Shown here: piece after piece, positions 2,206 to 57,517 of the stretch | Layout: every line of letters begins with the position of its first letter | Position numbering within the stretch: position 1 is the stretch's first letter | DNA from: Planctomycetota bacterium | GTDB taxonomy: Bacteria; Planctomycetota; UBA1135; UBA2386 | NCBI GenBank assembly: GCA_041398565.1 | Contig: JAWKUN010000002.1 | Span: forward strand, 1,717,376-1,781,375 | Length of the DNA stretch: 64,000 nt | Reading direction: 5' to 3' | Position numbers and translations under genes: made by a program | The notes under the pieces: generated by a model | Told to the model about the DNA's origin: nothing | Database searches by the model: none | The model's input: only the letters and a program-made list of their open reading frames with translations

Positions 2206-3978
2206 CTACTGCACGACGAAGTTGGCGATGCCGGCGGTCGTCACCTGGGTGGTGTTGTCGAAGGTGCCGACGGCGCTGATCCGCACCACCTTGAGGCCGC
2301 TGGTGAGCTTGCCGTTGAGCGCGGTGACGAAGCTGGAGAAGGTCAGGTGCAGCTCGGTGGCGCGTGCTTGGGTGATGGCGAAGAGGCCGCGGGCAGCCGC
2401 GGGCTCGATCGCCGGCTCGGGCGAGTTCTGCAGCACGACGGGTGCGAAGCCGTCACCCACGGCCTTGATCAGCGCCTGCGACACGTCGAACGACACCGAC
2501 GAACTCGTCGTCGTCGGCGTGACGGCCTGAGCCGGCGCCCATTGGCACAGAAGCACGCGAGCGGCCGCGGTGCGGTCGACGAGCGAGACGGCGGTGAAGT
2601 TGGCGTCGGCCGGCACGCCCACCGCGTTGACGAACCCGATGGCGCGCACGCGCGAGTTGAGGGTGATTCCGGTCGTCACCAGCCCGGTGGTGTCGATGGT
2701 GTAGGCGTCGGGGTCGGCCTCGCTGGTGGCGGCCACGGTGAAGTCGAACACCGATGCGTCGCGCAAGTCGAAGCGGGTGACGTCGAGGGTCAGGGTGTTG
2801 TTGCTGACGCTGCCGTTGGCGATGCCGAACACCGACGTCGGCAACATGCGCGCGACGCCGTTGGCGGCACTGCCGGCGTCCATGGTCGTGCCGGTCATGT
2901 CGCCGAAGACCATGACGATCTGGCCGACGTTGAGGTCGTCGGTGCCGAACGGCGACTCGAGCCCACGCTTGAGCACGAGCGTCTGACCGCGCACCACGTT
3001 GACCGTGTGGCTGGTGTTGAAGCGCCGCGTGGTCGTGCCGACGTCGAGCGACTGGCCGAGCACGGTCAGGGTGGCATCCCCGCCGGCCGCGCCCGTGCGC
3101 GCCGTGACGTGCCCGACGATCCAGTCCTGTCCGTTCCCCGGCACGCCGTAGCCGGTCTCGACGGCGGTGGCCTCGAGCACGCGGTCGGTGGAGTTGATGG
3201 TGCCTTGCACGAAGACACGCGGGCCGAGGTTGGCGCGCGACGCCAGGGCGCCGAGGCCGGCGTCACCGATGCTGACCACGCCGTCGATCTGGAACAGAGT
3301 GGTGGTGCTGGTTCGCACCGTGTAGGGAGCGATCACGGTGTTGCTGGTCGAGAGCTTCTGCACCAGGAAGGTGCGACCCCCCGTGTCCACCGTGCCGAGT
3401 GCGCCCTGGATGCGCGCTGGCTTGGCGTTGGTGAAGTCGACGGTGGCCGCGAGCACCGGCGTGAACGTCACGCGGTTGTTGGCGCTGTCGATGGCCAGCG
3501 ACTGGTCGAGGTCGAGGTCCAGGGTCCAAAGGTGGTTGCGCCTCGCGATGAGCTGCGGGCGCGAGGCACTACCGAAGGTCACCTCGACGTCGATGGCGCC
3601 GGTGATGGGGTTGCCTGACGAGTCCACCACGGTGGCGTGCGAGGACTGATCGTGCAGACAGACGATGGCGTTGGTGAAGTCGAGGGTCAGGGTCAGCCCT
3701 CGGTAGAAGCCTGCCGGAAGAGTGCCGCCGACGATGAGGTCGGAGAGCTGCTCGAGCTCGACGAAGTCGACACGGACCGGCGATGTCAGCGCGCTCACGT
3801 CGGCACCGCCGGCGCGGTGCAGGACCGCACCGGTGACGTCGACCTCGAACACGGCCAGTTCGTCGCTGGCCGCGTCGGTGAGCAGGAGCGAGAACTCTGC
3901 CTGGGCGTTGTCGGACGATTGGCCGCAGCCGAGCGTCAGCGCGCAGAGCAGGAACGGGGCGAAGCGTGGGAGGCGCAT
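2206..3978 (-). CDS. DUF4382-like lipoprotein
   Basis: 590-aa ORF. Signal peptide with lipobox LTLGC. The N-terminal block FSLLLTDAASDEL...VDFVELEQLSDL...LPAGFYRGLTLTLDF resembles the DUF4382 pattern as I remember it. The remainder is Thr/Val-rich and beta-like. Confidence 0.75.
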   Translation of the reverse strand: MRLPRFAPFLLCALTLGCGQSSDNAQAEFSLLLTDAASDELAVFEVDVTGAVLHRAGGADVSALTSPVRVDFVELEQLSDLIVGGTLPAGFYRGLTLTLDFTNAIVCLHDQSSHATVVDSSGNPITGAIDVEVTFGSASRPQLIARRNHLWTLDLDLDQSLAIDSANNRVTFTPVLAATVDFTNAKPARIQGALGTVDTGGRTFLVQKLSTSNTVIAPYTVRTSTTTLFQIDGVVSIGDAGLGALASRANLGPRVFVQGTINSTDRVLEATAVETGYGVPGNGQDWIVGHVTARTGAAGGDATLTVLGQSLDVGTTTRRFNTSHTVNVVRGQTLVLKRGLESPFGTDDLNVGQIVMVFGDMTGTTMDAGSAANGVARMLPTSVFGIANGSVSNNTLTLDVTRFDLRDASVFDFTVAATSEADPDAYTIDTTGLVTTGITLNSRVRAIGFVNAVGVPADANFTAVSLVDRTAAARVLLCQWAPAQAVTPTTTSSSVSFDVSQALIKAVGDGFAPVVLQNSPEPAIEPAAARGLFAITQARATELHLTFSSFVTALNGKLTSGLKVVRISAVGTFDNTTQVTTAGIANFVVQ

Positions 3979-7768: not shown

Positions 7769-9355
7769 CTACGCCTTGTCCTCTTCGGCCGGCGGCTTGT
7801 CGAGCAGCTGCAGGTCCTTGTAGCGGTCGCGGGCGTAGTTGATCTCGAACTCGCTGTTGAAGAGCGCCACTGGCCGCCCGGTCTCGTCGCGCACCACCAT
7901 CGGCAGCAGGTCGAGCAGGTCGGGCGTCGTCGTCACCATCCAGCGCGCGCGCGTGTAGGGCAAGCGCTGCATCTTGATCGCCACGTTGTATTCGTTCTCG
8001 AGGCGGTGCTGGAACACCTGGAGCTGCAGTTCGCCGACCGCGCCCAGGATCGGCTCGCGCGCGCCGAGGCGCGGCCAGAAGACCTGGACGACGCCCTCTT
8101 CGCCGAGTTGCTCCAGACCCTTGCCGAAGCCCTTGCTCATCGACGGGTCGCTGGCGCGCACTTGCGCGAAGATCTCCGGGGCGAAGCGCGGGAAATTGTG
8201 TGCTTCGAACCGCGGCCCCGAGGTGAGCACGTCGCCGACTCGGAACAGGCCGGGGTTGATGAGGCCGACGACGTCGCCCGGGAACGCTTCGTCGATGACG
8301 ATGCGGTCTTGGCCGAAGAACCGGTAGGGGTGCGACAGGCGCACTTCGCGGTCCATGCGCACGTGCCGCGCGGACATCCCTCGCTCGAAGCGCCCCGACG
8401 TGATGCGCGCGAACGCGACGCGGTCGCGATGCTGCTTGTCCATGTTGGCCGCCACCTTGAACACGAAGGCAGTGAAGTGCTTCGAGTCCGGCGGCACCTC
8501 GCCGTCCAGGGTCGGCAAGGGGCCGGGCGGCGGGCTCATCTCGAGAAAGCGCTGCAGGATGTTCTCGACGCCGAAGTTGACCAGCGCGCTCACGAAGAAC
8601 ACCGGACTGATCTCGCCGCGCAGGAAGCGTTCCTGGTCGAACGGATCGATGCAGGTCTCGACGGTCTGCAGGTCCTCCATCAGCTTGGCGTGCGCGTCCT
8701 CGCCGACTTGTTCGACCAGGAGCGGATCGCCGGGGCCCGACACCTTCACCGGGGCCCGCTGCGCGTTGTGCGCGGTGCGCTCGAACAGGAGCACGCGGCG
8801 CTTGTCGACCTCGTACACGCCTTTCAGCTCGTTGTCGACCTTGATCGGCCAGGTGATCGGCACGCAGGTGATGCCCAGCACCTTCTCGACCTCGTCCATC
8901 AGGTCGTAGGGGCTGCGGGTCGGACGGTCCATCTTGTTGACGATCGTGACGATCGGCAGGCCCCGCGCCTTGCACACCTTGAACAGCTTGATCGTCTGCG
9001 TCTCGACGCCCTTGGCGCCGTCGATCAACATCATGGCGCAGTCGGCCGCCACCAGGGTGCGGTAGGTGTCTTCGGAGAAGTCCTGGTGGCCGGGTGTGTC
9101 GAGCAGGTTGATGCGGTAGCCCTGGTAGTCGAACTGCAGGGCCGAGCTGGTGATCGAGATGCCGCGCTGGCGCTCGAGCTCCATCCAGTCGGAGGTCGTC
9201 TGATGCTGGCCGCGCCGGGCCTTGACCGCGCCGGCCTCGTGGATGGCGCCGCCGTACAGCAGGAGCTTCTCGGTGAGGGTGGTCTTGCCGGCGTCGGGGT
9301 GCGAGATGATCGCAAAGGTGCGGCGCCGGGCGATTTCAGCGGCGAGGTCGGCCAT
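7769..9355 (-). CDS. prfC: peptide chain release factor 3
   Basis: 528 aa. GTPase motifs AIISHPDAGKTT, DTPGHQDF and NKMD are present. The full-length RF3-like sequence includes SDWMELERQRGISI. Confidence 0.97.
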   Translation of the reverse strand: MADLAAEIARRRTFAIISHPDAGKTTLTEKLLLYGGAIHEAGAVKARRGQHQTTSDWMELERQRGISITSSALQFDYQGYRINLLDTPGHQDFSEDTYRTLVAADCAMMLIDGAKGVETQTIKLFKVCKARGLPIVTIVNKMDRPTRSPYDLMDEVEKVLGITCVPITWPIKVDNELKGVYEVDKRRVLLFERTAHNAQRAPVKVSGPGDPLLVEQVGEDAHAKLMEDLQTVETCIDPFDQERFLRGEISPVFFVSALVNFGVENILQRFLEMSPPPGPLPTLDGEVPPDSKHFTAFVFKVAANMDKQHRDRVAFARITSGRFERGMSARHVRMDREVRLSHPYRFFGQDRIVIDEAFPGDVVGLINPGLFRVGDVLTSGPRFEAHNFPRFAPEIFAQVRASDPSMSKGFGKGLEQLGEEGVVQVFWPRLGAREPILGAVGELQLQVFQHRLENEYNVAIKMQRLPYTRARWMVTTTPDLLDLLPMVVRDETGRPVALFNSEFEINYARDRYKDLQLLDKPPAEEDKA

Positions 9356-9454: not shown

Positions 9455-12319
9455 TCACAAGCCCAAGGTCAGGCGCACGCCGTTCGACCAGTCGAACGGC
9501 AGCGCCGTGCCGGGGCCGGACACCGCCTGGGCGGCCAGGCGGGCGCCGGCGAGTTCGAGGCCGGGAGGCACGGAGATCGGGAGGACACCGTTGCCGGGCA
9601 TGGCCAGCCAGACGAACGCCGACGAGTCGACGAACGAGGCGCAGCTGAGGTCGAGCAGCGGCAGGCGCAGGGGGACGACGCGGTTGTGCCCGAGGAACAG
9701 GACGTGCGCCGCGTGGCCGCGTTCGACCCGCGCTTCGATCTGGGCGCCGAGACGCGGCGCGTCGACTCGTAGCCGCAGGCCGTCGCCGCAGCCGAAGCCC
9801 TGGGATTGCGCAGTCGCCCCGACGGCGACGCGCCACAGTTCGATGCCGTGCTCGGAGTCGCTCGCCGAGTACAGCAGGTGGCCGTCGACGCCGAGCAAGG
9901 GAGCCTGCACGTCGCCCGTGCCCAGGAGCCGTGTGCCGGCGGCGGTTCCGTCGGTCACGAAGAGGAACTCCTGCTGCGGCGGCCCGGCCAGGAGGATGTT
10001 CAGGGCCAAGAGTCGGTCGGACACCAGGGTGCCGCGGACGATGCCCCTCGGCAGGGTGAGCGCCAGCGGCTGCGTGCCGGCCGCGGTGCCGTCGGTGCGC
10101 ACGAGGTCGAGGGCCGCACCGGTGTCGCGTGCGACGATCGCCAGGTCACCCATGGCGAACACCGCGACCGGACGCGAGGCCGCGGGCAGGGAGACGACGC
10201 TGGTGGGGGTGCCATCGGTGCTCACGGTCTCGCTGCCGATGCTGAGCACGAGGCGCTCGCCGATGGACGCGGTGCGCAGGTTGGTGAAGACCGTCGAGCC
10301 GCTGCCGGCGGTGCGGTCCTCGAGCAGCTGGGTGCCGGCGATCGAGCCGTCCGTCGTCCACATTTCGAAGCCGTGGACGCCGTCGTCGGCCAGGAAGATC
10401 GCGCGGTCGCCGGCGGTTCCGATGACGCCGGAGAGGATGTTGGGTACCGGGAAGGTGCGCAAAGCGACGGTGCCGGAGGCGCTGCCGTCGCTGAACCAGA
10501 GCGTCGTCTGTGCTGAGCCGGCGGGGACCGCGTGGGTGACGAAGCAGACGCCCCCACGGACGCGTGCGAATCCGGCGCTGGGGATGCGTTGGCCCGGCTC
10601 CAGGTCGACCAGGAGTCTGGTGCCGGCGGCGGTGCCGTCGCTGACGTAGAGCTGCGAGGTCTGCAAACCGTCGTTGCTGGCCACGAACACGGCGCGGCCA
10701 CCGTTGAGCTCGCCGCGCCAGTCGCGGTACGGGAAGAGCAGCGAGTAGTACGAGGTGTCGAGCTGGAGCTGAGCGATCGCCCCAGTTCCGGCCGTGGTGC
10801 CGTCGCTACGCCACAGCGAACCAGTGCCGTCGTCGATGAGCACGGCGTCGTTGAGTTCCGCGACCAACCGGGCCGCTCTCGACATCGGCGCGAGCGCGCG
10901 GGTACCGGCGACCGAGCCGTCGGAGGCGTAGAGGCGCAGACCCTGTCCCGACTCGGCGACCACGAGGGCGCGGCCGCCGATCGCGGCGATGGCCGACGGC
11001 GAGGCGTCGGCCGTAGCGCGTCGAGGGTCGATGTCCGCGGCCAGGGCGGTATTGGCCACGGTTCCGTCGGTGTGCCACAGCTCGATGCCGTGCAGGCTGG
11101 AGAAGCCGCCGAAGTAGGCCGAGCCGTCGGCGAGGCCGACGAAGTTGCCGATGACCTGTGCAGGCAGGGCGCGTGTCCGGGCCGAGGTGCCATCGCTGAC
11201 GAACATGTCCCCACGGGCGTCGACGACGTATGCGGTGCTGCCGGCCGCGGTCAGGTGGTAGCTGGTGGCGCGACCGAGGTCGAAGCCGGCGAGCGTGAAG
11301 GCATGGGTCCCCGGGGCGACGAACGCCAGGTCGACCCGACCCGCATTCACCACCATGGCCAGGCGGCCATCGGCCAGTGCGACGATCTCGCCGCCTGCGT
11401 CGGGGCCCGAGGCCAACTCGACGGTGCCGCCGGCGGTGCCGTCGCTGTAGAACAGCCTGCGGGCGAAGCCAACGGTCGCCGAGAACGCCACGCCGTTGTC
11501 GAACGCGACCAGCTCGCCGGGGTAGGAGTTCGCCGCGCCGGATTGGATGTCGGCCACCAGGCGCACGTTCTGTCCGTCGGTGGCGTAGAGTTCTGCCCCC
11601 GTGGTGCCGTCGTCGCCGGCGAAGAAGAGCTCGCCGCCGGCGGCGACGATGCGCTGCCCGGACGTGCCCGACGCCTCGCCAGGCCTGAGGTCGCGCACCA
11701 AGCGTGTGCCGGCGCTCGTGCCATCACTCACCCAGATCTCGTAGCCGTGGATGGTGTCGTCGACGGCCATGGCCACGCCGTTGCCGAAGGGAGTGATCTT
11801 GGCGAGGACAGGCGAGCCTGCACCGGGCGCCATGTCGGAGAGGCGCTCCGTCCGATTCGAAGAGACGTCGGCGACCCACAGCTCGCGGCCGAAGCCGTTC
11901 GAGTCAGCGAAGAAGAACAGTTTGTCGCCGACCGCGACGAGGTCGCTGGGGTTCGCCCCCGACAGGACCTGGATGCGGCCGAGGGCCGGATCGAACACGT
12001 GCAGCCGCCGCGTGCCTTGCCAGTCTTGGGCGGAGAACGCGATCTTCGCGCCGAACGCGGTGACGTGTTGCGGGTTGGAACTCTGCTGGCCGGCCACGCC
12101 GTCCCAGGCGAGCGAAGCGCGGCCCTGATGGTCGACGAACCATAGCTCGCGTCCGACGAACGGCGCGGTCGCTGCGAAGAAGACGCCGTTCGCGTGGGCC
12201 GCGAAGGAAGCGGGCGACGACGAGGAAGCGAGGCCGGGCTGCTGGTTGAGGTCGAGGACGAGTTGGCCCTGCGCGAACACCGTCGAGACGGTGGCCAGCG
12301 AACTCAAGAGGAACTTCAT
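9455..12319 (-). CDS. secreted ELWxxDGT-repeat protein with shared FG.GC C-terminal module
   Basis: The track ORF runs to 12499. The in-frame ATG at 12319 gives the signal peptide MKFLLSSLATVSTVFAQ. There are more than 12 copies of the ELW..DGT.AGT motif (EIWVSDGTSAGT, ELWHTDGTVANT, EMWTTDGSIAGT and others). The last 116 aa form the shared tail. Confidence 0.85.
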   Translation of the reverse strand: MKFLLSSLATVSTVFAQGQLVLDLNQQPGLASSSSPASFAAHANGVFFAATAPFVGRELWFVDHQGRASLAWDGVAGQQSSNPQHVTAFGAKIAFSAQDWQGTRRLHVFDPALGRIQVLSGANPSDLVAVGDKLFFFADSNGFGRELWVADVSSNRTERLSDMAPGAGSPVLAKITPFGNGVAMAVDDTIHGYEIWVSDGTSAGTRLVRDLRPGEASGTSGQRIVAAGGELFFAGDDGTTGAELYATDGQNVRLVADIQSGAANSYPGELVAFDNGVAFSATVGFARRLFYSDGTAGGTVELASGPDAGGEIVALADGRLAMVVNAGRVDLAFVAPGTHAFTLAGFDLGRATSYHLTAAGSTAYVVDARGDMFVSDGTSARTRALPAQVIGNFVGLADGSAYFGGFSSLHGIELWHTDGTVANTALAADIDPRRATADASPSAIAAIGGRALVVAESGQGLRLYASDGSVAGTRALAPMSRAARLVAELNDAVLIDDGTGSLWRSDGTTAGTGAIAQLQLDTSYYSLLFPYRDWRGELNGGRAVFVASNDGLQTSQLYVSDGTAAGTRLLVDLEPGQRIPSAGFARVRGGVCFVTHAVPAGSAQTTLWFSDGSASGTVALRTFPVPNILSGVIGTAGDRAIFLADDGVHGFEMWTTDGSIAGTQLLEDRTAGSGSTVFTNLRTASIGERLVLSIGSETVSTDGTPTSVVSLPAASRPVAVFAMGDLAIVARDTGAALDLVRTDGTAAGTQPLALTLPRGIVRGTLVSDRLLALNILLAGPPQQEFLFVTDGTAAGTRLLGTGDVQAPLLGVDGHLLYSASDSEHGIELWRVAVGATAQSQGFGCGDGLRLRVDAPRLGAQIEARVERGHAAHVLFLGHNRVVPLRLPLLDLSCASFVDSSAFVWLAMPGNGVLPISVPPGLELAGARLAAQAVSGPGTALPFDWSNGVRLTLGL

Positions 12320-49460: not shown

Positions 49461-49562
49461 CGCACCGCAAGCCGTTGCCGCAGCCGACGCGTCGGTAGGC
49501 GCGCCCCGGATGTGACTTGTCGCCGGTTGCCTGGCGCGATGCCAGGGGGTACGCGTGTCGGC

Positions 49563-51533
49563 ATGCCTCGGTCGCGCGTACCTCTCTCCCTGGCCAGTCT
49601 CGTGCTGCTGAGCGGTGTCGCGATCGCCCAGCGTGTCAGCGATCGCCGGGCGACGCCGGCCGACAGCGGGTTGCTCGACAACCCCGACTCGCGCTCGCGC
49701 GTCGTCTGGTCGATGACGCTCGCCGGGAAGGGGGACAGCTGGCAGCGCGTCGAGCTCGGAGCCTGCGCGCTGCCGCCGGGGAGCATGCTCGTGGTGGGAC
49801 TGGCGGATCGCTCCGCCGTGCAACACCTCGACGCGAACAGTCTGCGTGCCTACGGCTCGCGCTCGTGCTTCTTCGACGGTGGCGATCTGCGCCTCGACCT
49901 GGTGGCGGGGCCGCGGACCGTCGGCAACCGGGTGGTGGTCGTCGCCGTCGAACACGGTCTGGAGCTGGCGCCGCAGACGCTGTGCGGCAGCGATGATCGC
50001 GTGCTGAGCTCGGATCCCCGGGTCGGCCGCACCTGGCCGACGCGCTGCACCGGCTTCTTGATCCTGCCGGATCTCGGTGTCACCGCCGGCCACTGCGTGA
50101 ACGCCAACGACGTCATCGAGTGGAACGTGCCGCTGTCCGACCCCAACGGCACTCCGCGCCAAGCCGCGCCGCGCGACCAGTATCCCATCCAATGGGTGGC
50201 GTCGCGCTACGCCGGCAGCGGTAGCTCCAACGACTGGGCGGTGTTCCGCATCGGCATCAACAGCGAGACCGGCAAGCTGCCCAACCACGACCGCGGCTTC
50301 ACCTGGTTCCAACTCGGCTCGCCGTCCCTGGTGCAGCCCTTCGATGCGGTCTCGATCACCGGATACGGCGAGGTGGCGCCACCGGTCGACCCGCGCTGGA
50401 ACTCGGTTCAGAAGCGCCACGCCGGGGCGGTGATGCAGAACCTGATGCAGCCGCCCGACCCGACCGTCCTGTTCACGGCGGTCGACACCAGCGGCGGCAA
50501 CTCGGGCAGCCCGGTCGTGCTCGACCGTTCGGGCCGGGTCGTGGCCGTGCACACGAACGGCTTCTGCGACCCCACCGCGCCGGAGCTGATGGCGTTCGCC
50601 TTCACGCGCGGCGTGGAAGGGTGGGGACCGGCCGGGCTCGTGCAGTGGGAGGCGACGGGCGGCGCTCCCGATGGCCACGTGTCGATGGCCTGCCCGATCT
50701 ACATCAACCACCCGTTCGGCAACATGGCGGCGTGGCTCGGCCACGACCTGGTGTTCGACGCCAGGTTCGAGGGCTTCGGCGCCAGCGACATCCTGCAGGT
50801 GAAGCTGAACGCGAGCAGCGACGCTGCCGAGGCGCAGGTGACGCAAACCGGCGGCGACGACCTCGGCGGTGGTTGGCGCCGCTATCGGATCCCGCTGGTG
50901 CCCTCGGCGTGGACGACCTCGACGTCGCTGGCCAATGTGCTCACCACGCTCGTCGATCTCACCTTCGACCCGTCGCTGTGCCCGGGCAGCGCCCGCCTGC
51001 ACCTCGACAACGTGGCGTTCCAGCCGTGGGACGCCGGTTGGTCGCGTCCGGCGGGCAACATGGCGACGCGCGTCGACCGCCCGGAGTTCGCCGCGGTGCT
51101 CACCGCCGAGCTGGCGACCGGCGTCCTGCCGCGGGTCAGCACCTTCGGGGCAGGTTGCCCGCACAGCAGCGGTCTGGCAACGCTGGCGCCGCAGGGGGTG
51201 GCGCGGGTCGGCGGCCAGGCGCGGGCGACGGTCACCGGCCTGCCGGCGACCAGTGCGGTCGGTCTGTTCCTCATCGGCTTCTCGCGCAACGAATGGGGCG
51301 CGCTGCCGCTGCCGCTGCCCCTCGCCTTCCTGGGCCGGGCCGACTGTCGGTTGTCGGTGAGTCTCGACATCGTGCTCGACGTCGGGATCACCGGCGGCGT
51401 CGCCAGCTCGACGCTCGGCTTGCCGGCCGCCGCCAACGTCCTCGGGCTCGCCTTGTTCGAGCAGTTCTTGCTGGTCGAGACGAGCAGCGCCGTGGCCCTG
51501 ACCCAGGCGGCCCAGTTCCTGGTGGGCAGCTGA
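49563..51533 (+). CDS. secreted S1-family (glutamyl-endopeptidase-like) serine protease with extra beta domain and shared FG.GC C-terminal module
   Basis: ATG at 49563 gives the signal peptide MPRSRVPLSLASLVLLSGVAIAQ. Catalytic triad contexts are VTAGHC, NDWAVFRI and GGNSGSPV. The last 129 aa form the shared tail. Confidence 0.8.
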   Translation: MPRSRVPLSLASLVLLSGVAIAQRVSDRRATPADSGLLDNPDSRSRVVWSMTLAGKGDSWQRVELGACALPPGSMLVVGLADRSAVQHLDANSLRAYGSRSCFFDGGDLRLDLVAGPRTVGNRVVVVAVEHGLELAPQTLCGSDDRVLSSDPRVGRTWPTRCTGFLILPDLGVTAGHCVNANDVIEWNVPLSDPNGTPRQAAPRDQYPIQWVASRYAGSGSSNDWAVFRIGINSETGKLPNHDRGFTWFQLGSPSLVQPFDAVSITGYGEVAPPVDPRWNSVQKRHAGAVMQNLMQPPDPTVLFTAVDTSGGNSGSPVVLDRSGRVVAVHTNGFCDPTAPELMAFAFTRGVEGWGPAGLVQWEATGGAPDGHVSMACPIYINHPFGNMAAWLGHDLVFDARFEGFGASDILQVKLNASSDAAEAQVTQTGGDDLGGGWRRYRIPLVPSAWTTSTSLANVLTTLVDLTFDPSLCPGSARLHLDNVAFQPWDAGWSRPAGNMATRVDRPEFAAVLTAELATGVLPRVSTFGAGCPHSSGLATLAPQGVARVGGQARATVTGLPATSAVGLFLIGFSRNEWGALPLPLPLAFLGRADCRLSVSLDIVLDVGITGGVASSTLGLPAAANVLGLALFEQFLLVETSSAVALTQAAQFLVGS

Positions 51534-51732
51534 CCTTTCCGGCCGGTGTCGCAGTCGGCGTGCGGCGCGCGGGCGGCGAGCCAGGAGCGGGTTCGATCAC
51601 GGCATGACCTCGAGCAGGAGATCCGCCGACTCGAGGCCATGCCATCCGACCCTGGCCGCGCCAAGGCGATTAGGATGTTGCGACGGCGCCTCGATGGCGC
51701 CTGACCAGTCAGTTCAGGTTCAGGAGGCTTCC

Positions 51733-52659
51733 ATGACCGTGATTCGACCCCTGCCGGCGCTCTTGCTCGTGTGCGTCGGCCTGTCCGCGCAGGAGGGACA
51801 GACGAGAGAGAAGGACGAGACCGCGCGCATCGACAGCGTCGGCGCCGCCCTCGATACGGCCTTGGCCAAAGCGCGCACGCACGCCAAGCGCGTGTTGGTC
51901 GTGTGGACCGACGGCGGTGCCGCCGGCGAGGCCCTGGCCAAGGCGATGAAGGCGCGCGCGCTGTCGCACCTGCTGCAGTACGAGTACGCGGTGGCGACCG
52001 TGTCCGCAATCGATGGCGCGGCCCTCGCCAAGCAGCTCGGCTGCGAACGCTTGGTCCTCGAGCCGCCTGCGGCCGCTGTGCTCGACGCCGAGCGGCGCGT
52101 GCTCGCTCGGCTCGGTCACGCCGACCTGTTCGAGGGCGACGCGGTCGCCGCCAAGGCCCTCACCGAGAAGCTGGGCGAGCTGAAGGCCGAGCCGCTCGAC
52201 GGCGACGCCGTGCTGGCGGCGGGCCTGGCTCGAGCCAAGAAGCTCGACTTGCGCGTGTTCGTGCGCTTCGACGCGCCCTGGTGAGGGTGGTGCAAAGTGC
52301 TCGAGGAGTTCCTCGAGCGACCGAAGGTGGCACCGCTGCTGGCCAAGGACTGGGTCGACGTCATGATCGACACCGAGCGCATGACGCACGGGCAGGCGAT
52401 CATGGATCGCCTCAAGGGCAAGCGGCAGGGTGGCCTGCCCTGGATGATCGTGCTCGATGCCGACGGCAAGGAGCTGATCACCTCGAACAAGGAGGACGGC
52501 GGCGGCAACATCGGCGGACCGGTGCAGCCCGAAGAGATCGCGCATTTCATACAGATGCTGCGACGCACGAAGCAGCACATGAGCGACGAGGACGTGGCGA
52601 CGGTGGAGGGTGAGCTGAACGAGTACGCCAAGCCCTTCCAGAGACCGCAGCGCCGGTAG
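51733..52659 (+). CDS. exported tandem thioredoxin-fold protein, candidate selenoprotein (UGA at 52282-52284 read as Sec in a U-G-W-C redox motif)
   Basis: ATG at 51733 with AGGAGG 6 nt upstream, and a signal peptide. The frame reads ...VFVRFDAPW-TGA-GWCKVLEEFLERP... and continues to TAG at 52659. The track shows it as two same-frame ORFs (51604-52284 and 52297-52659). A SECIS-like hairpin follows. If it is not recoded, the alternative is a truncated or pseudogenised Trx-like gene. Confidence 0.6.
52299..52318 (+). promoter_or_regulatory. SECIS-like stem-loop
   Basis: GCTCGAGG-AGTT-CCTCGAGC is a perfect 8-bp stem with a 4-nt loop that has G at its second position. It starts 14 nt after the UGA, and the loop is 22 nt after it. 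A possible lower stem is GGTGC (52289-52293) / GCACC (52330-52334). Confidence 0.5.
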
Positions 52660-52892
52660 GTGTCATCTCGCTGCGCTGGCGAGTCGCGCGCCGTTGCGCG
52701 GACTCGCCGAGCGCGGCGGCCCACGTCGCTCCGGTCGGACCGCATTGCGGCGCCGGCTGCGTCGCGGCCGGCCGCACCTGCGCCTTCCGGCCACGCGCCA
52801 CGTGTTGCGACGGTCCCCACTCGACCTCGTCCGTTGCCGCCGGATCGCTCCCATCCAGATCTTCTGCACTTTTGGAAAGTATCTGGATCTAG

Positions 52893-55751
<2,859 letters not shown>

Positions 55752-55892: not shown

Positions 55893-56732
55893 TCAGCGCC
55901 GGACGACGCGCTGCCACTGCGCCGGCGCGACGTCGCGCACGCGCTCGGTCTCCGGCACCAGCATCAGGGCCCGCACGTACGGAAGGCGTGCGTCGGCGTC
56001 GGGGGCGCTGAGGAACTTGCGCACCAGGTAGTCGGCGCGGGCCGTCGGGAAGCACGTGTACAGCGTGCTGGTCGCCAGCAGGGTCGCCCACCCGGCGCGG
56101 GCCCACGCCGAGACCCGGTCTTGCATGCGGCCCCGCTCCAGGAAGCAGAACGTCAGCACGAAGCCGGCGAGCATGCCGCCGAGGTGGGCGGCGTTGCTCA
56201 CGTAGGGGATGATCCAGCCCAGTACCAGGTTGGCGACGATGGTGCCGAGGAAGGACCGCGCGCCGGAGTGGTCGAGGAAGTCGAGCAGGTGGCGGCCGCC
56301 GCGCATGTTCAGGGCGAGGATGGCGCCCATCATCGCGAACAGGGCACCCGAGCCGCCGACCAGGGGCGTCTGCGCCGAGTGCCAGAACACGCCGGCGACG
56401 CTGCCGCCGAGGGCGCCGACCAGATAGAGGACAGCGAAGCGGGCGCTACCGAGCCAGCGCTCGAGGGTGGGGCCGAGCGCCAGCAGCGATGCGGCGTTCA
56501 CCAGCACGTGCAGGAGGTTGCCGTGCACGAATGCGTAGGTGAGCAGGCGCCACGATTCGCCGTCTTGGATCTCGTCGCCGATCGCGCTCAAGGTCGTGCG
56601 GGCCCAATCGCCCAGTGACAGCTCGGAGCCGGGCCGACGTCCGGGATACATGAACACCGCGTAGGCGAGGAGCACCACGTAGGTGAGCGGCGTGTCCTGC
56701 GGCTGGCTCCGCCGCGTGCCGGCAGCGCTCAT
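55893..56732 (-). CDS. rhomboid-family intramembrane serine protease
   Basis: WRLLTYAFVHGNLLHVLVN, GGSGALFAMMG (GxSG) and NAAHLGGMLAGF are present. The ATG at 56732 overlaps the upstream TPR gene stop (ATGA); the track start at 56750 is less likely. Confidence 0.88.
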   Translation of the reverse strand: MSAAGTRRSQPQDTPLTYVVLLAYAVFMYPGRRPGSELSLGDWARTTLSAIGDEIQDGESWRLLTYAFVHGNLLHVLVNAASLLALGPTLERWLGSARFAVLYLVGALGGSVAGVFWHSAQTPLVGGSGALFAMMGAILALNMRGGRHLLDFLDHSGARSFLGTIVANLVLGWIIPYVSNAAHLGGMLAGFVLTFCFLERGRMQDRVSAWARAGWATLLATSTLYTCFPTARADYLVRKFLSAPDADARLPYVRALMLVPETERVRDVAPAQWQRVVRR

Positions 56733-57517
56733 CGGTAGCCTCCCAACCACAGCGCGACGCGGGCGCGCGCGCGGGCGTTCTGCTCCTCCAAGGACAACTG
56801 GCGACCGTCGGTGGGTGGTGCCGCGGCTTCCGCCAGCAGCATCCGACTCTCGTCGCGCTGGCCCAGGCCGGCGAGCGCGCGCGCGTGCAGCACGAGCGCG
56901 ACGCGCGGGTCGCCGTGCAGGCTACGGAACCGGCGCAGCACGAAGTCGGCCTCGTGGTGCAGGCGCGCCTGCTCGAGGATGGCCGCCAGGTCGAGGAACG
57001 GCTGCCCCGACGCGAGCTGGGTGTCGGCCGCCAGCACCCGCTGCAGTCCGTCGACCGCACCCTGCAGGTCGCCGGCGTCGCGCCGCGCCAGCGCCAGCTG
57101 GTAGCGCGCGCCGGTATGCGAGCCATCCAGATGCACCGCCTGTTCCAGGTGCTTGACGGCGGCTGCGGCTTGGCCGCGCTCGCGCAGGAAGCGACCGACC
57201 GCGAAGTGGTCGTTCACGGTCTCGAGCTGAGCGAGGCGCGCGTACGCGTCGCGGACCGGCTTGTCGGAGGTGGCCATGCGCATCCAGGCGCGGCGCACGC
57301 GCAGCCGCAAGCTGGGCACGAACGGCGGGTACAGAAGGACCGCGACGGCACCCGCCACCAGCACGCCCCACGCCAGCCAGCCCGAGCCGCGCGTCACCCA
57401 CTGCGCCGCGGACACGCCCGCCGTCGGCTGTGCCGCTCCCAGCGCCAGCAACGCCAACGGCCACAGGGCGACGAGCCAGAGCAAGGAGACGGCGAGGACG
57501 CGCGGTGAGCGGAACAC
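56729..57517 (-). CDS. membrane-anchored TPR-repeat protein
   Basis: Two N-terminal TM helices, then TPR-like helices (AVKHLEQAVHLDGSHTGARYQLALARRDAGDLQGAV). The start is uncertain: GTG at 57517 is chosen, and ATG at 57640 is possible. Confidence 0.65.
   Translation of the reverse strand: MFRSPRVLAVSLLWLVALWPLALLALGAAQPTAGVSAAQWVTRGSGWLAWGVLVAGAVAVLLYPPFVPSLRLRVRRAWMRMATSDKPVRDAYARLAQLETVNDHFAVGRFLRERGQAAAAVKHLEQAVHLDGSHTGARYQLALARRDAGDLQGAVDGLQRVLAADTQLASGQPFLDLAAILEQARLHHEADFVLRRFRSLHGDPRVALVLHARALAGLGQRDESRMLLAEAAAPPTDGRQLSLEEQNARARARVALWLGGYR

Follow-up and report, generated by a model that had tools for sequence, protein, structure and literature searches.

What happens when a reading frame meets UGA in the middle of a thioredoxin redox motif? 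This question is raised by a gene in a 64,000-nucleotide (nt) stretch of DNA from a member of the Planctomycetota (GenBank assembly GCA_041398565.1, contig JAWKUN010000002.1, positions 1,717,376 to 1,781,375, forward strand); this whole stretch is called the window below, and coordinates are counted from its first letter. The original prediction, made from the letters of the window, was that the UGA encodes selenocysteine (Sec, U) at the first position of a WCGWC motif and is followed by a hairpin resembling a bacterial selenocysteine insertion sequence (SECIS). Comparative analysis supports this central claim through the homology of the UGA with cysteine, through the recurrence of TGA at the same column, and through the co-occurrence of the hairpin with it. 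The region 51733-52662 (+) is very probably one gene, encoding an exported selenoprotein that is thioredoxin-like and has two domains. The evidence for this consists of a continuous frame under selection that runs over the UGA, the correspondence of U to Cys, the association of UGA with the hairpin, the conservation of the hairpin at the RNA level, and the fold.

One Reading Frame across a UGA

A single open reading frame (ORF) extends on the forward strand from an ATG at 51733 to a TAG at 52660-52662, comprising 309 codons, with an in-frame TGA at 52282-52284. The frame begins with MTVIRPLPALLLVCVGLSAQ, reaches FVRFDAPW immediately before the TGA, and resumes with GWCKVLEEFLERPKVAPLL, the junction being APW-U-GWCK. 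Read as Sec, the UGA is residue 184 and the first position of a W-U-G-W-C redox motif; the resolving cysteine of this UxxC motif would be the UGC at 52291-52293 (+), in a column that is invariant and occupied by TGC or TGT only. A Shine-Dalgarno-like AGGAGG (51722-51727, +), read directly from the sequence, lies 5 nt 5' of the ATG, and the gene calls of GenBank and Logan begin at this same ATG. Flanking the TGA, the GC content at third codon positions (GC3) amounts to 0.95 and 0.93. No other in-frame TGA of the window lies between two stretches with GC3 of the coding type. The reading frame with UGA inside WCGWC was described correctly at the outset, with all coordinates exact to the base.

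Gene callers divide this frame, as had been anticipated. The callers of GenBank, JGI, and Logan all give the identical two ORFs, and the split at the TGA is repeated in two independent read-set assemblies. In GenBank, the pieces are R3F56_06440 and R3F56_06445, each a "hypothetical protein" (183 and 120 amino acids (aa), respectively), the second of which starts at a GTG at 52297.

The N-terminus of the protein, MTVIRPLPALLLVCVGLSAQ (51733-51792, +), is a predicted export signal, judged from sequence features: a basic residue, a hydrophobic core, and SAQ followed by E at the end. Orthologues have leaders equivalent to it, and lipobox-like leaders (L-x-G-C) are found in a clade of single-domain forms. 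Both kinds of leader suggest that the protein is exported.

Cysteine Homologues and the UGA Column

The identity of the residue encoded by the UGA is suggested by the homologues. Around 100 full-length Cys homologues, 310-350 aa long and nearly all from Planctomycetota, contain two Thioredoxin_7 (Trx7) stretches and two WCGWC motifs, and the window TGA falls on the first Cys of the second motif, a residue that does not vary among them. At the nucleotide level, the codon in question is TGC or TGT in eight Cys-form loci. Two diverged orthologues, with N-terminal fragments 57% and 46% identical to that of the window, share the junction FVRFDAPW-TGA-GWCKVLEEFL with it.

The TGA set was assembled from 35 species-representative loci, found in a scan of GTDB with one genome per species, from three read-set contigs (L001-L003, of which L002 and L003 are one sequence obtained in two runs), and from 17 metagenome contigs. 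TGA is present at the column in all 35 loci of the species scan, where C-terminal identity goes down to 37-39%, and in 54 of the 54 TGA-form sequences other than that of the window (35 from species-representative genomes, 19 from metagenome or read-set contigs), the most distant of which have tails only 32-39% identical. Homologues carry either Cys (TGC or TGT) or TGA at exactly this column, as the original prediction required, and the downstream frame is conserved in the 54 other TGA forms. Indeed, the ratio of nonsynonymous to synonymous substitution rates (dN/dS) 3' of the TGA is 0.19-0.36 in the frame of the gene, while the corresponding ratio of proportions (pN/pS) exceeds 1 in the other two frames. 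Many orthologues end in an ordinary TGA stop, which indicates that these genomes have not reassigned UGA in general.

The 35 species-representative loci have three architectures: the two-domain form of the window, a single-domain form with a lipoprotein-like leader (Pirellulaceae), and long fusions. Two of these loci, L035 (from 8022-9134 on) and L036 (from 9995-11107 on), come from two Planctomycetales metagenome-assembled genomes and have the Sec-Trx7 domain at the N-terminus. After 369 codons, their ORF meets another in-frame TGA, which comes after GKVVFLVFWGFW and before some 115 codons that start with GPCKGEIPHEK and encode a UxxC domain of the TlpA/redoxin-like type; 14 nt downstream of this second TGA is a small hairpin, GGGA-GAGA-UCCC. 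These loci look like fusion proteins with two selenocysteines, the second site having a different SECIS loop. In three other loci (L022, on JBERSB010000203.1, L008, and L010), the gene is of the Planctomycetota type and its contigs bear the name "Luminiphilus sp.", which is a gammaproteobacterium, or "candidatus Brocadiaceae"; the first of these names seems to result from contamination during binning.

Domains and Fold

For the Pfam search, U was written as C in the joined protein. The joined protein matches Thioredoxin_7 (PF13899) at residues 161-243, with 41.9 bits against a cutoff of 27 (E = 1.1e-10), and Thioredox_DsbH (PF03190), with 33.5 bits against 27. Both matches cross residue 184, and these are the only two thioredoxin-type Pfam families above threshold. 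The N-terminal fragment alone has no Pfam match and the C-terminal fragment alone attains 18.6 bits, under the cutoff, in agreement with the earlier view that neither half is a complete domain. The C-terminal Thioredoxin_7 domain, of the DsbD-gamma/DsbH-like type, occupies 52213-52461 (+) by the Pfam limits and spans the UGA, its fold continuing to about 52575.

The N-terminal half had been described as a second, degenerate thioredoxin fold without CxxC, and this holds. A region at approximately 51835-52182 (+) is, in the alignment, the counterpart of the first Trx7 domain in the Cys homologues and has WTDG--GAAGE where they have WGANWCGWC, and the model of a homologue contains tandem folds. 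The CxxC of the N-domain is missing in every two-domain TGA form (the window gene, L001-L025, L027, and L038), and nearly all Cys homologues keep both motifs. Judging from these alignments, the use of Sec in domain 2 is associated with the loss of the domain 1 redox centre.

The structure model was obtained with AlphaFold for P0002, the closest full-length Cys homologue (41% identity), rather than for the window protein. It has a predicted local distance difference test (pLDDT) score of 93.6 and a predicted template-modelling (TM) score (pTM) of 0.85, and it consists of two tandem thioredoxin folds with the second CxxC between beta-1 and alpha-1 of domain 2. The solved folds nearest to it are the Xylella "disulphide isomerase" 3fk8 (TM score 0.82, 26% identity), DsbD-gamma (around 0.65-0.70), and DsbH (2ju5); 3fk8 is also the top full-domain match by sequence (E = 1.4e-6). 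In the window gene, the CCC at 52438-52440 (+) encodes Pro236 of a GGLPW loop, in a column that is invariant in the family alignment and that precedes strand 255-259 in the homologue model. Pro236 probably occupies the cis-proline position of the thioredoxin fold, its cis state being taken from that fold in general.

The Hairpin Downstream of the UGA

The SECIS-like hairpin lies at 52298-52319 (+) and has a core composed of CUCGAGG (52300-52306), the loop AGUU (52307-52310), and CCUCGAG (52311-52317). In the window genome, this core is lengthened by a G-C pair, which results in a perfect 8-bp stem of GCUCGAGG (52299-52306) and CCUCGAGC (52311-52318), and by a U.G pair (52298/52319). The gap between the UGA and the stem is 14 nt, that between the UGA and the loop is 22 nt, and the second base of the loop is G; what had been said of the stem, its loop, and the G at loop position 2 is exact in every particular. 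The consensus used by bSECISearch comprises a UGA-to-loop distance of 16-37 nt, a small apical loop, and a G in the first two loop positions. The window hairpin, with its stem of 7-9 bp, its AGUU, and its distance of 22 nt, fits this consensus.

RNAfold recovers the hairpin, and the 71-nt region folds with -36.3 kcal/mol (z = -3.2). In the 64-kb window, which has a GC content of 70.4%, there are 39 perfect 8-bp hairpins with loops of 3-8 nt, and the chance that such a hairpin would start 8-30 nt after a given TGA is about 1.4% on this background. That figure alone is suggestive and not decisive for the role of the hairpin. Two other structures were considered and set aside. Longer-range pairing around the hairpin in the minimum-free-energy fold of the window is kept in the closest relatives only and is not counted with the element. 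The gene also contains AGGCGATC-ATG-GATCGCCT (52394-52412, +), another perfect 8-bp hairpin 112 nt after the TGA, which is absent from the closest orthologue, L001, and is probably due to chance.

More telling is the distribution of the hairpin. One of the patterns used in the GTDB scan, WCKVLEEF, overlaps the peptide encoded by the hairpin, and the scan was therefore repeated in metagenomes with patterns derived from the tail only, the hairpin peptide being excluded. This repeat scan found the hairpin (6-7 of 7 pairs, with AGUU) in 17 of 17 TGA loci and in none of eight Cys loci, which form 1-5 of the 7 pairs, have different loops, and encode CH[RK]L[ED].W[ML] in place of the hairpin peptide. 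The element is thus present in all the TGA forms and absent from the eight Cys forms, which agrees with the prediction that it should accompany the TGA in orthologues.

The conservation of the hairpin is exerted at the RNA level. In the codon-entropy alignment (36 TGA forms), the hairpin codons, L-E-E-F-L, have one variant codon in 180 and an entropy of about 0, and the lone variant, CTC to CTT, retains a U.G pair. Other degenerate codons of the gene that are equally conserved have entropies of 0.45-1.9 bits, and Glu is encoded elsewhere by GAG and GAA in ratios of 21:13 and 27:9. This freezing of synonymous sites is not an artefact of ascertainment because the searches were made with patterns degenerate at the level of DNA. 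In the stem-pairing statistics, which cover 55 TGA sequences, 96.1% of the cells of the 7-bp stem are paired as against 33-65% with the partners slid, and the AGUU loop is invariant.

One distant sequence departs from the common stem. L063, a TGA form at 2962-3003 of a JGI metagenome contig with 32% tail identity, has CUCGAUA-AGUU-UAUCGAG at the identical offset. Two pairs have changed in a compensatory manner (G-C to U-A and G-C to A-U), and the peptide has changed from LEEFLE to LDKFIE (GWCHRLDKFIE). On this comparison, the covariation is real but thin, and the weight of the argument lies with the frozen synonymous sites and with the perfect co-occurrence of TGA and hairpin. L063 may have gone from Cys to Sec independently and arrived at this loop and spacing by convergence. 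Another JGI metagenome contig, L064 (position 941), carries a Cys form that reads CGWCKRLDAFLD and has no hairpin; L063 and L064 are both single-domain and constitute a distant Sec/Cys pair.

Proposed Selenocysteine Insertion and Its Alternatives

How could the UGA be decoded? In the favoured explanation, the hairpin, with its 7-8 bp and its AGUU tetraloop, would act as a bacterial SECIS during translation and would bring the complex of SelB, GTP, and Sec-tRNA(Sec) to the ribosome, where Sec would be inserted in place of termination. The product would contain W-U-G-W-C and hence a selenenylsulfide/selenol-thiol redox centre. The mature protein would be an extracytoplasmic thiol-disulfide oxidoreductase of the Thioredoxin_7/DsbD-gamma/DsbH type, in which the N-terminal thioredoxin-like domain, having lost its own CxxC, would presumably be structural or bind the substrate. 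For the window protein, we infer the involvement of SelB and Sec-tRNA, the incorporation of selenium, and a redox direction that could be that of a reductase or of an oxidase.

Several results weigh against this explanation. The assignment of the gene as a selenoprotein stands on the comparison of sequences, and export is likewise deduced from the appearance of the leader. ARAGORN found no tRNA-Sec in the window or in 37 related loci, and tblastn with E. coli SelA, SelB, and SelD found no selA, selB, or selD in the window or the related loci (632 kb). No Rfam SECIS model matched the whole window at the gathering threshold or 52230-52400 at E <= 10, these searches returning only three tRNAs and one chance snoRNA. 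No NCBIfam selenoprotein model reached its cutoff for the window protein, the best being TsoB (NF045694) with 20.6 bits against 805. Compensatory covariation comes from L063 alone, the stem being otherwise invariant, and the window hairpin is without the bulged U that E. coli fdhF has in the upper stem of its SECIS.

The sole weak match to a SelB-like GTPase, at 7772-9355 (-) of the window, is peptide chain release factor 3, prfC (NF001964, 691 bits). The flanks of the loci were also scanned for further in-frame TGA codons with a redox-like context, which gave only noise.

Another possibility is that the hairpin stimulates read-through or recoding of the UGA without Sec, a near-cognate or suppressor tRNA supplying a standard amino acid such as Trp or Cys. 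Downstream RNA structures can promote the read-through of stop codons in other systems, which provides a precedent, and the failure to find Sec machinery in the window or the 632 kb of related loci would also be in keeping with it. This possibility is nevertheless an improbable one. Trp would inactivate the enzyme and Cys could be encoded by UGC, as it is in the homologues. The spacing and the G of the loop match the bacterial SECIS consensus, and AGUU is unchanged even in L063, where the stem is altered, which points to a sequence-specific recognition of the loop and not to a mere roadblock. Moreover, the UGA is exactly at the catalytic Cys of CxxC, the classic position of Cys/Sec exchange in many UxxC families (PMC13188914). 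A complete Sec machinery is, furthermore, documented in some Planctomycetes, namely two isolates from Porphyra (one of them a Rhodopirellula), Gemmata, and Isosphaera (PMC4807772).

Still less probable is a gene that is truly split, in which translation stops at the UGA (52282) and restarts at the GTG (52297) to give products of 183 and 120 aa that act separately or assemble non-covalently. These are the two ORFs yielded by all the callers, and the purifying selection downstream, acting on a frame that the GTG ORF shares, does not alone exclude a split. However, the cut would fall inside CxxC: the N-terminal fragment would stop at APW and the C-terminal fragment would start past both redox residues, and neither product would have an active-site Cys because the resolving Cys (52291-52293) precedes the GTG. 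The 12 nt from the UGA to the GTG (GGN UGG UGY AAR, encoding GWCK) would be untranslated in a split gene, yet they are conserved in 55 sequences, where changes are mostly at synonymous third positions with a few conservative replacements. The GTG itself is replaced in L059 (by AGG) and in L063 (by CGA). Nor would a split gene account for the sub-threshold Pfam scores of the separate fragments or for the alignment of the UGA with Cys in around 100 homologues, and the conservation of synonymous sites in the hairpin would have no role.

Finally, a pseudogene, or an error of sequencing or assembly that placed a premature stop in an ordinary Cys-type gene of the thioredoxin family, would need only one change from TGC to TGA in what is a metagenome-assembled genome, but it is effectively refuted by the comparative data since the same TGA recurs when two read sets are assembled independently, as well as in 54 further sequences with tail identity down to 32%, the downstream region is under purifying selection, and both the loss of the N-domain motif and the hairpin are clade-wide.

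Genomic Neighbourhood

Upstream of the selenoprotein gene, at 49512-51533 (+), is the gene for a trypsin-like peptidase (673 aa, Trypsin_2 domain) whose N-terminus includes a hydrophobic stretch, and between the two is a 52-aa ORF (51546-51704, +) that matches no family; neither is conserved beside the selenoprotein gene in other genomes. Downstream are genes for a FUR-family regulator and a KatG-type catalase-peroxidase (52918-55751, +), followed by a convergent rhomboid gene (55893-56750, -). L001 and L002, the closest relatives, have the rhomboid gene directly after the selenoprotein gene. Among around 60 related loci, Fur/KatG genes are beside the gene in none and the rhomboid gene in three, and there is no conserved partner gene. 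The furA-katG pair looks like an insertion specific to the window genome.

The original prediction had proposed that the neighbours form an extracytoplasmic redox-defence locus. Genes of the FUR-family and KatG types do follow the gene, but the idea of such a locus was dropped because the neighbours are not conserved. The N-terminus of KatG (53379-53480, +) contains, by eye, an RRR motif, a hydrophobic stretch, and a lipobox-like L-I-S-A-C sequence. This suggests a leader of the twin-arginine translocation (Tat) type and/or the lipoprotein type, which is unusual for KatG.

Significance

The immediate consequence is the correction of an annotation error, in that one redox enzyme is listed as two "hypothetical proteins" in at least 35 species-level genomes of Planctomycetota. 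The bacterial selenoproteome gains an extracytoplasmic UxxC family of the Thioredoxin_7 type, and a dependence on selenium is implied for many environmental Planctomycetota. The forms with UGA and hairpin, set against the Cys forms without hairpin, constitute a natural data set for studying how Cys/Sec exchange and the SECIS co-evolve within a coding sequence. The concept of selenoprotein function is unchanged by the finding.

A broader interpretation can be put forward only tentatively. The CUCGAGG/CCUCG(A/G)G stem, the invariant AGUU, and the fixed offset of 22 nt, which are found over three architectures and several orders and are preserved by the compensatory changes in the distant L063, could represent a SECIS type frozen throughout a lineage of Planctomycetota. 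The absence of the N-domain CxxC from every two-domain TGA form might mark a shift from an extracytoplasmic enzyme with two dithiol centres to one with a single selenenylsulfide. If planctomycetal SelB recognised its target by AGUU at a spacing of 22 nt, this combination could be used to look for further selenoproteins in a phylum whose selenoproteome is largely uncharted.

Comparison with Known Systems

At the RNA level, the obvious comparison is with the SECIS of E. coli fdhF. Both elements are hairpins just 3' of a UGA within an ORF, and both have a small apical loop that contains G-U and a spacing inside 16-37 nt. They differ in the loop, which is AGUU in the window and GGUC in fdhF, and in the start of the stem, which is 14-15 nt after the UGA in the window and 11 nt in fdhF, to which may be added the bulged U of fdhF mentioned above.

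At the protein level, the solved folds nearest to the family model, DsbD-gamma, DsbH, and 3fk8, belong to exported periplasmic reductases with CxxC at the start of helix alpha-1. All of these use Cys, unlike the window protein, and DsbD-gamma is joined to a membrane domain. The window protein scores below the cutoffs of the models for DsbD (NF001419, 18.9 bits against 330) and DsbH (NF043050, 19.5 bits against 190), and its likeness to DsbD and DsbH proper is at the level of the fold only. As for TsoB, a rhodanese/DsbD fusion with UxxxxU, the match is confined to the DsbD-like part, and the window protein has no rhodanese domain.

Selenoproteins with a thioredoxin fold, a UxxC motif, and an intragenic SECIS are the commonest kind in bacteria, with examples that include Sec-thioredoxin, glutaredoxin, DsbA-like and DsbG-like proteins, a "thiol:disulfide interchange protein", and TlpA-like proteins (PMC1794560, PMC13188914). 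Closest in design are Sec-thioredoxin (PF00085) and the "thiol:disulfide interchange protein" family (PF13098) of Geobacter and Syntrophus described by Zhang et al. in 2006 (PMC1794560; see also PMC13188914). These have in common with the window family a thioredoxin fold, Sec at the N-terminal Cys of CxxC, a SECIS in the coding region right after the UGA, Cys homologues that are more numerous, and gene calls that are truncated or split. By their description, the PF13098 selenoproteins are set apart from the window protein, which is a Thioredoxin_7 protein in tandem with a degenerate first domain, has W-U-G-W-C, and comes from Planctomycetota and not Deltaproteobacteria. Against PF13098 itself, the window protein, with its UxxC, scores 18.5 bits for a cutoff of 27, and the Cys homologue P0002 scores 51.4 bits.

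A 2026 inventory contains no UxxC family of PF13899, its sole Trx7 entry being the Trx7/PDZ selenoprotein NF041199, which has CxxU (PMC13188914). This protein resembles the window protein in its Thioredoxin_7 type and in having Sec in the redox motif; its Sec is C-terminal in the motif and it has a PDZ domain, whereas the window protein has UxxC and is without PDZ in Pfam. The NF041199 model gave no match to the window protein at E <= 1.

In planctomycete P1, Kim et al. reported in 2016 candidate selenoproteins annotated as split "thiol-disulfide isomerase-like thioredoxin" in two adjacent genes (PMC4807772, Table S9). These candidates, known here by their description, share with the window gene a planctomycete host, which in the case of P1 has the full Sec machinery, and the split annotation. 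Their closest Cys homologue is in the Isosphaeraceae (Singulisphaera), the family that also provides the Cys homologues P0032 and P0066 of the present set. The difference is that bSECISearch gave no SECIS for the P1 candidates (PMC4807772), whereas the hairpin of the window family is very clear. In the databases, no member of this family is named as a selenoprotein. Set beside these systems, the window gene is a standard bacterial Sec-recoding unit in an oxidoreductase with a thioredoxin fold, and what is new is the family, which is widespread in Planctomycetota and systematically mis-annotated.

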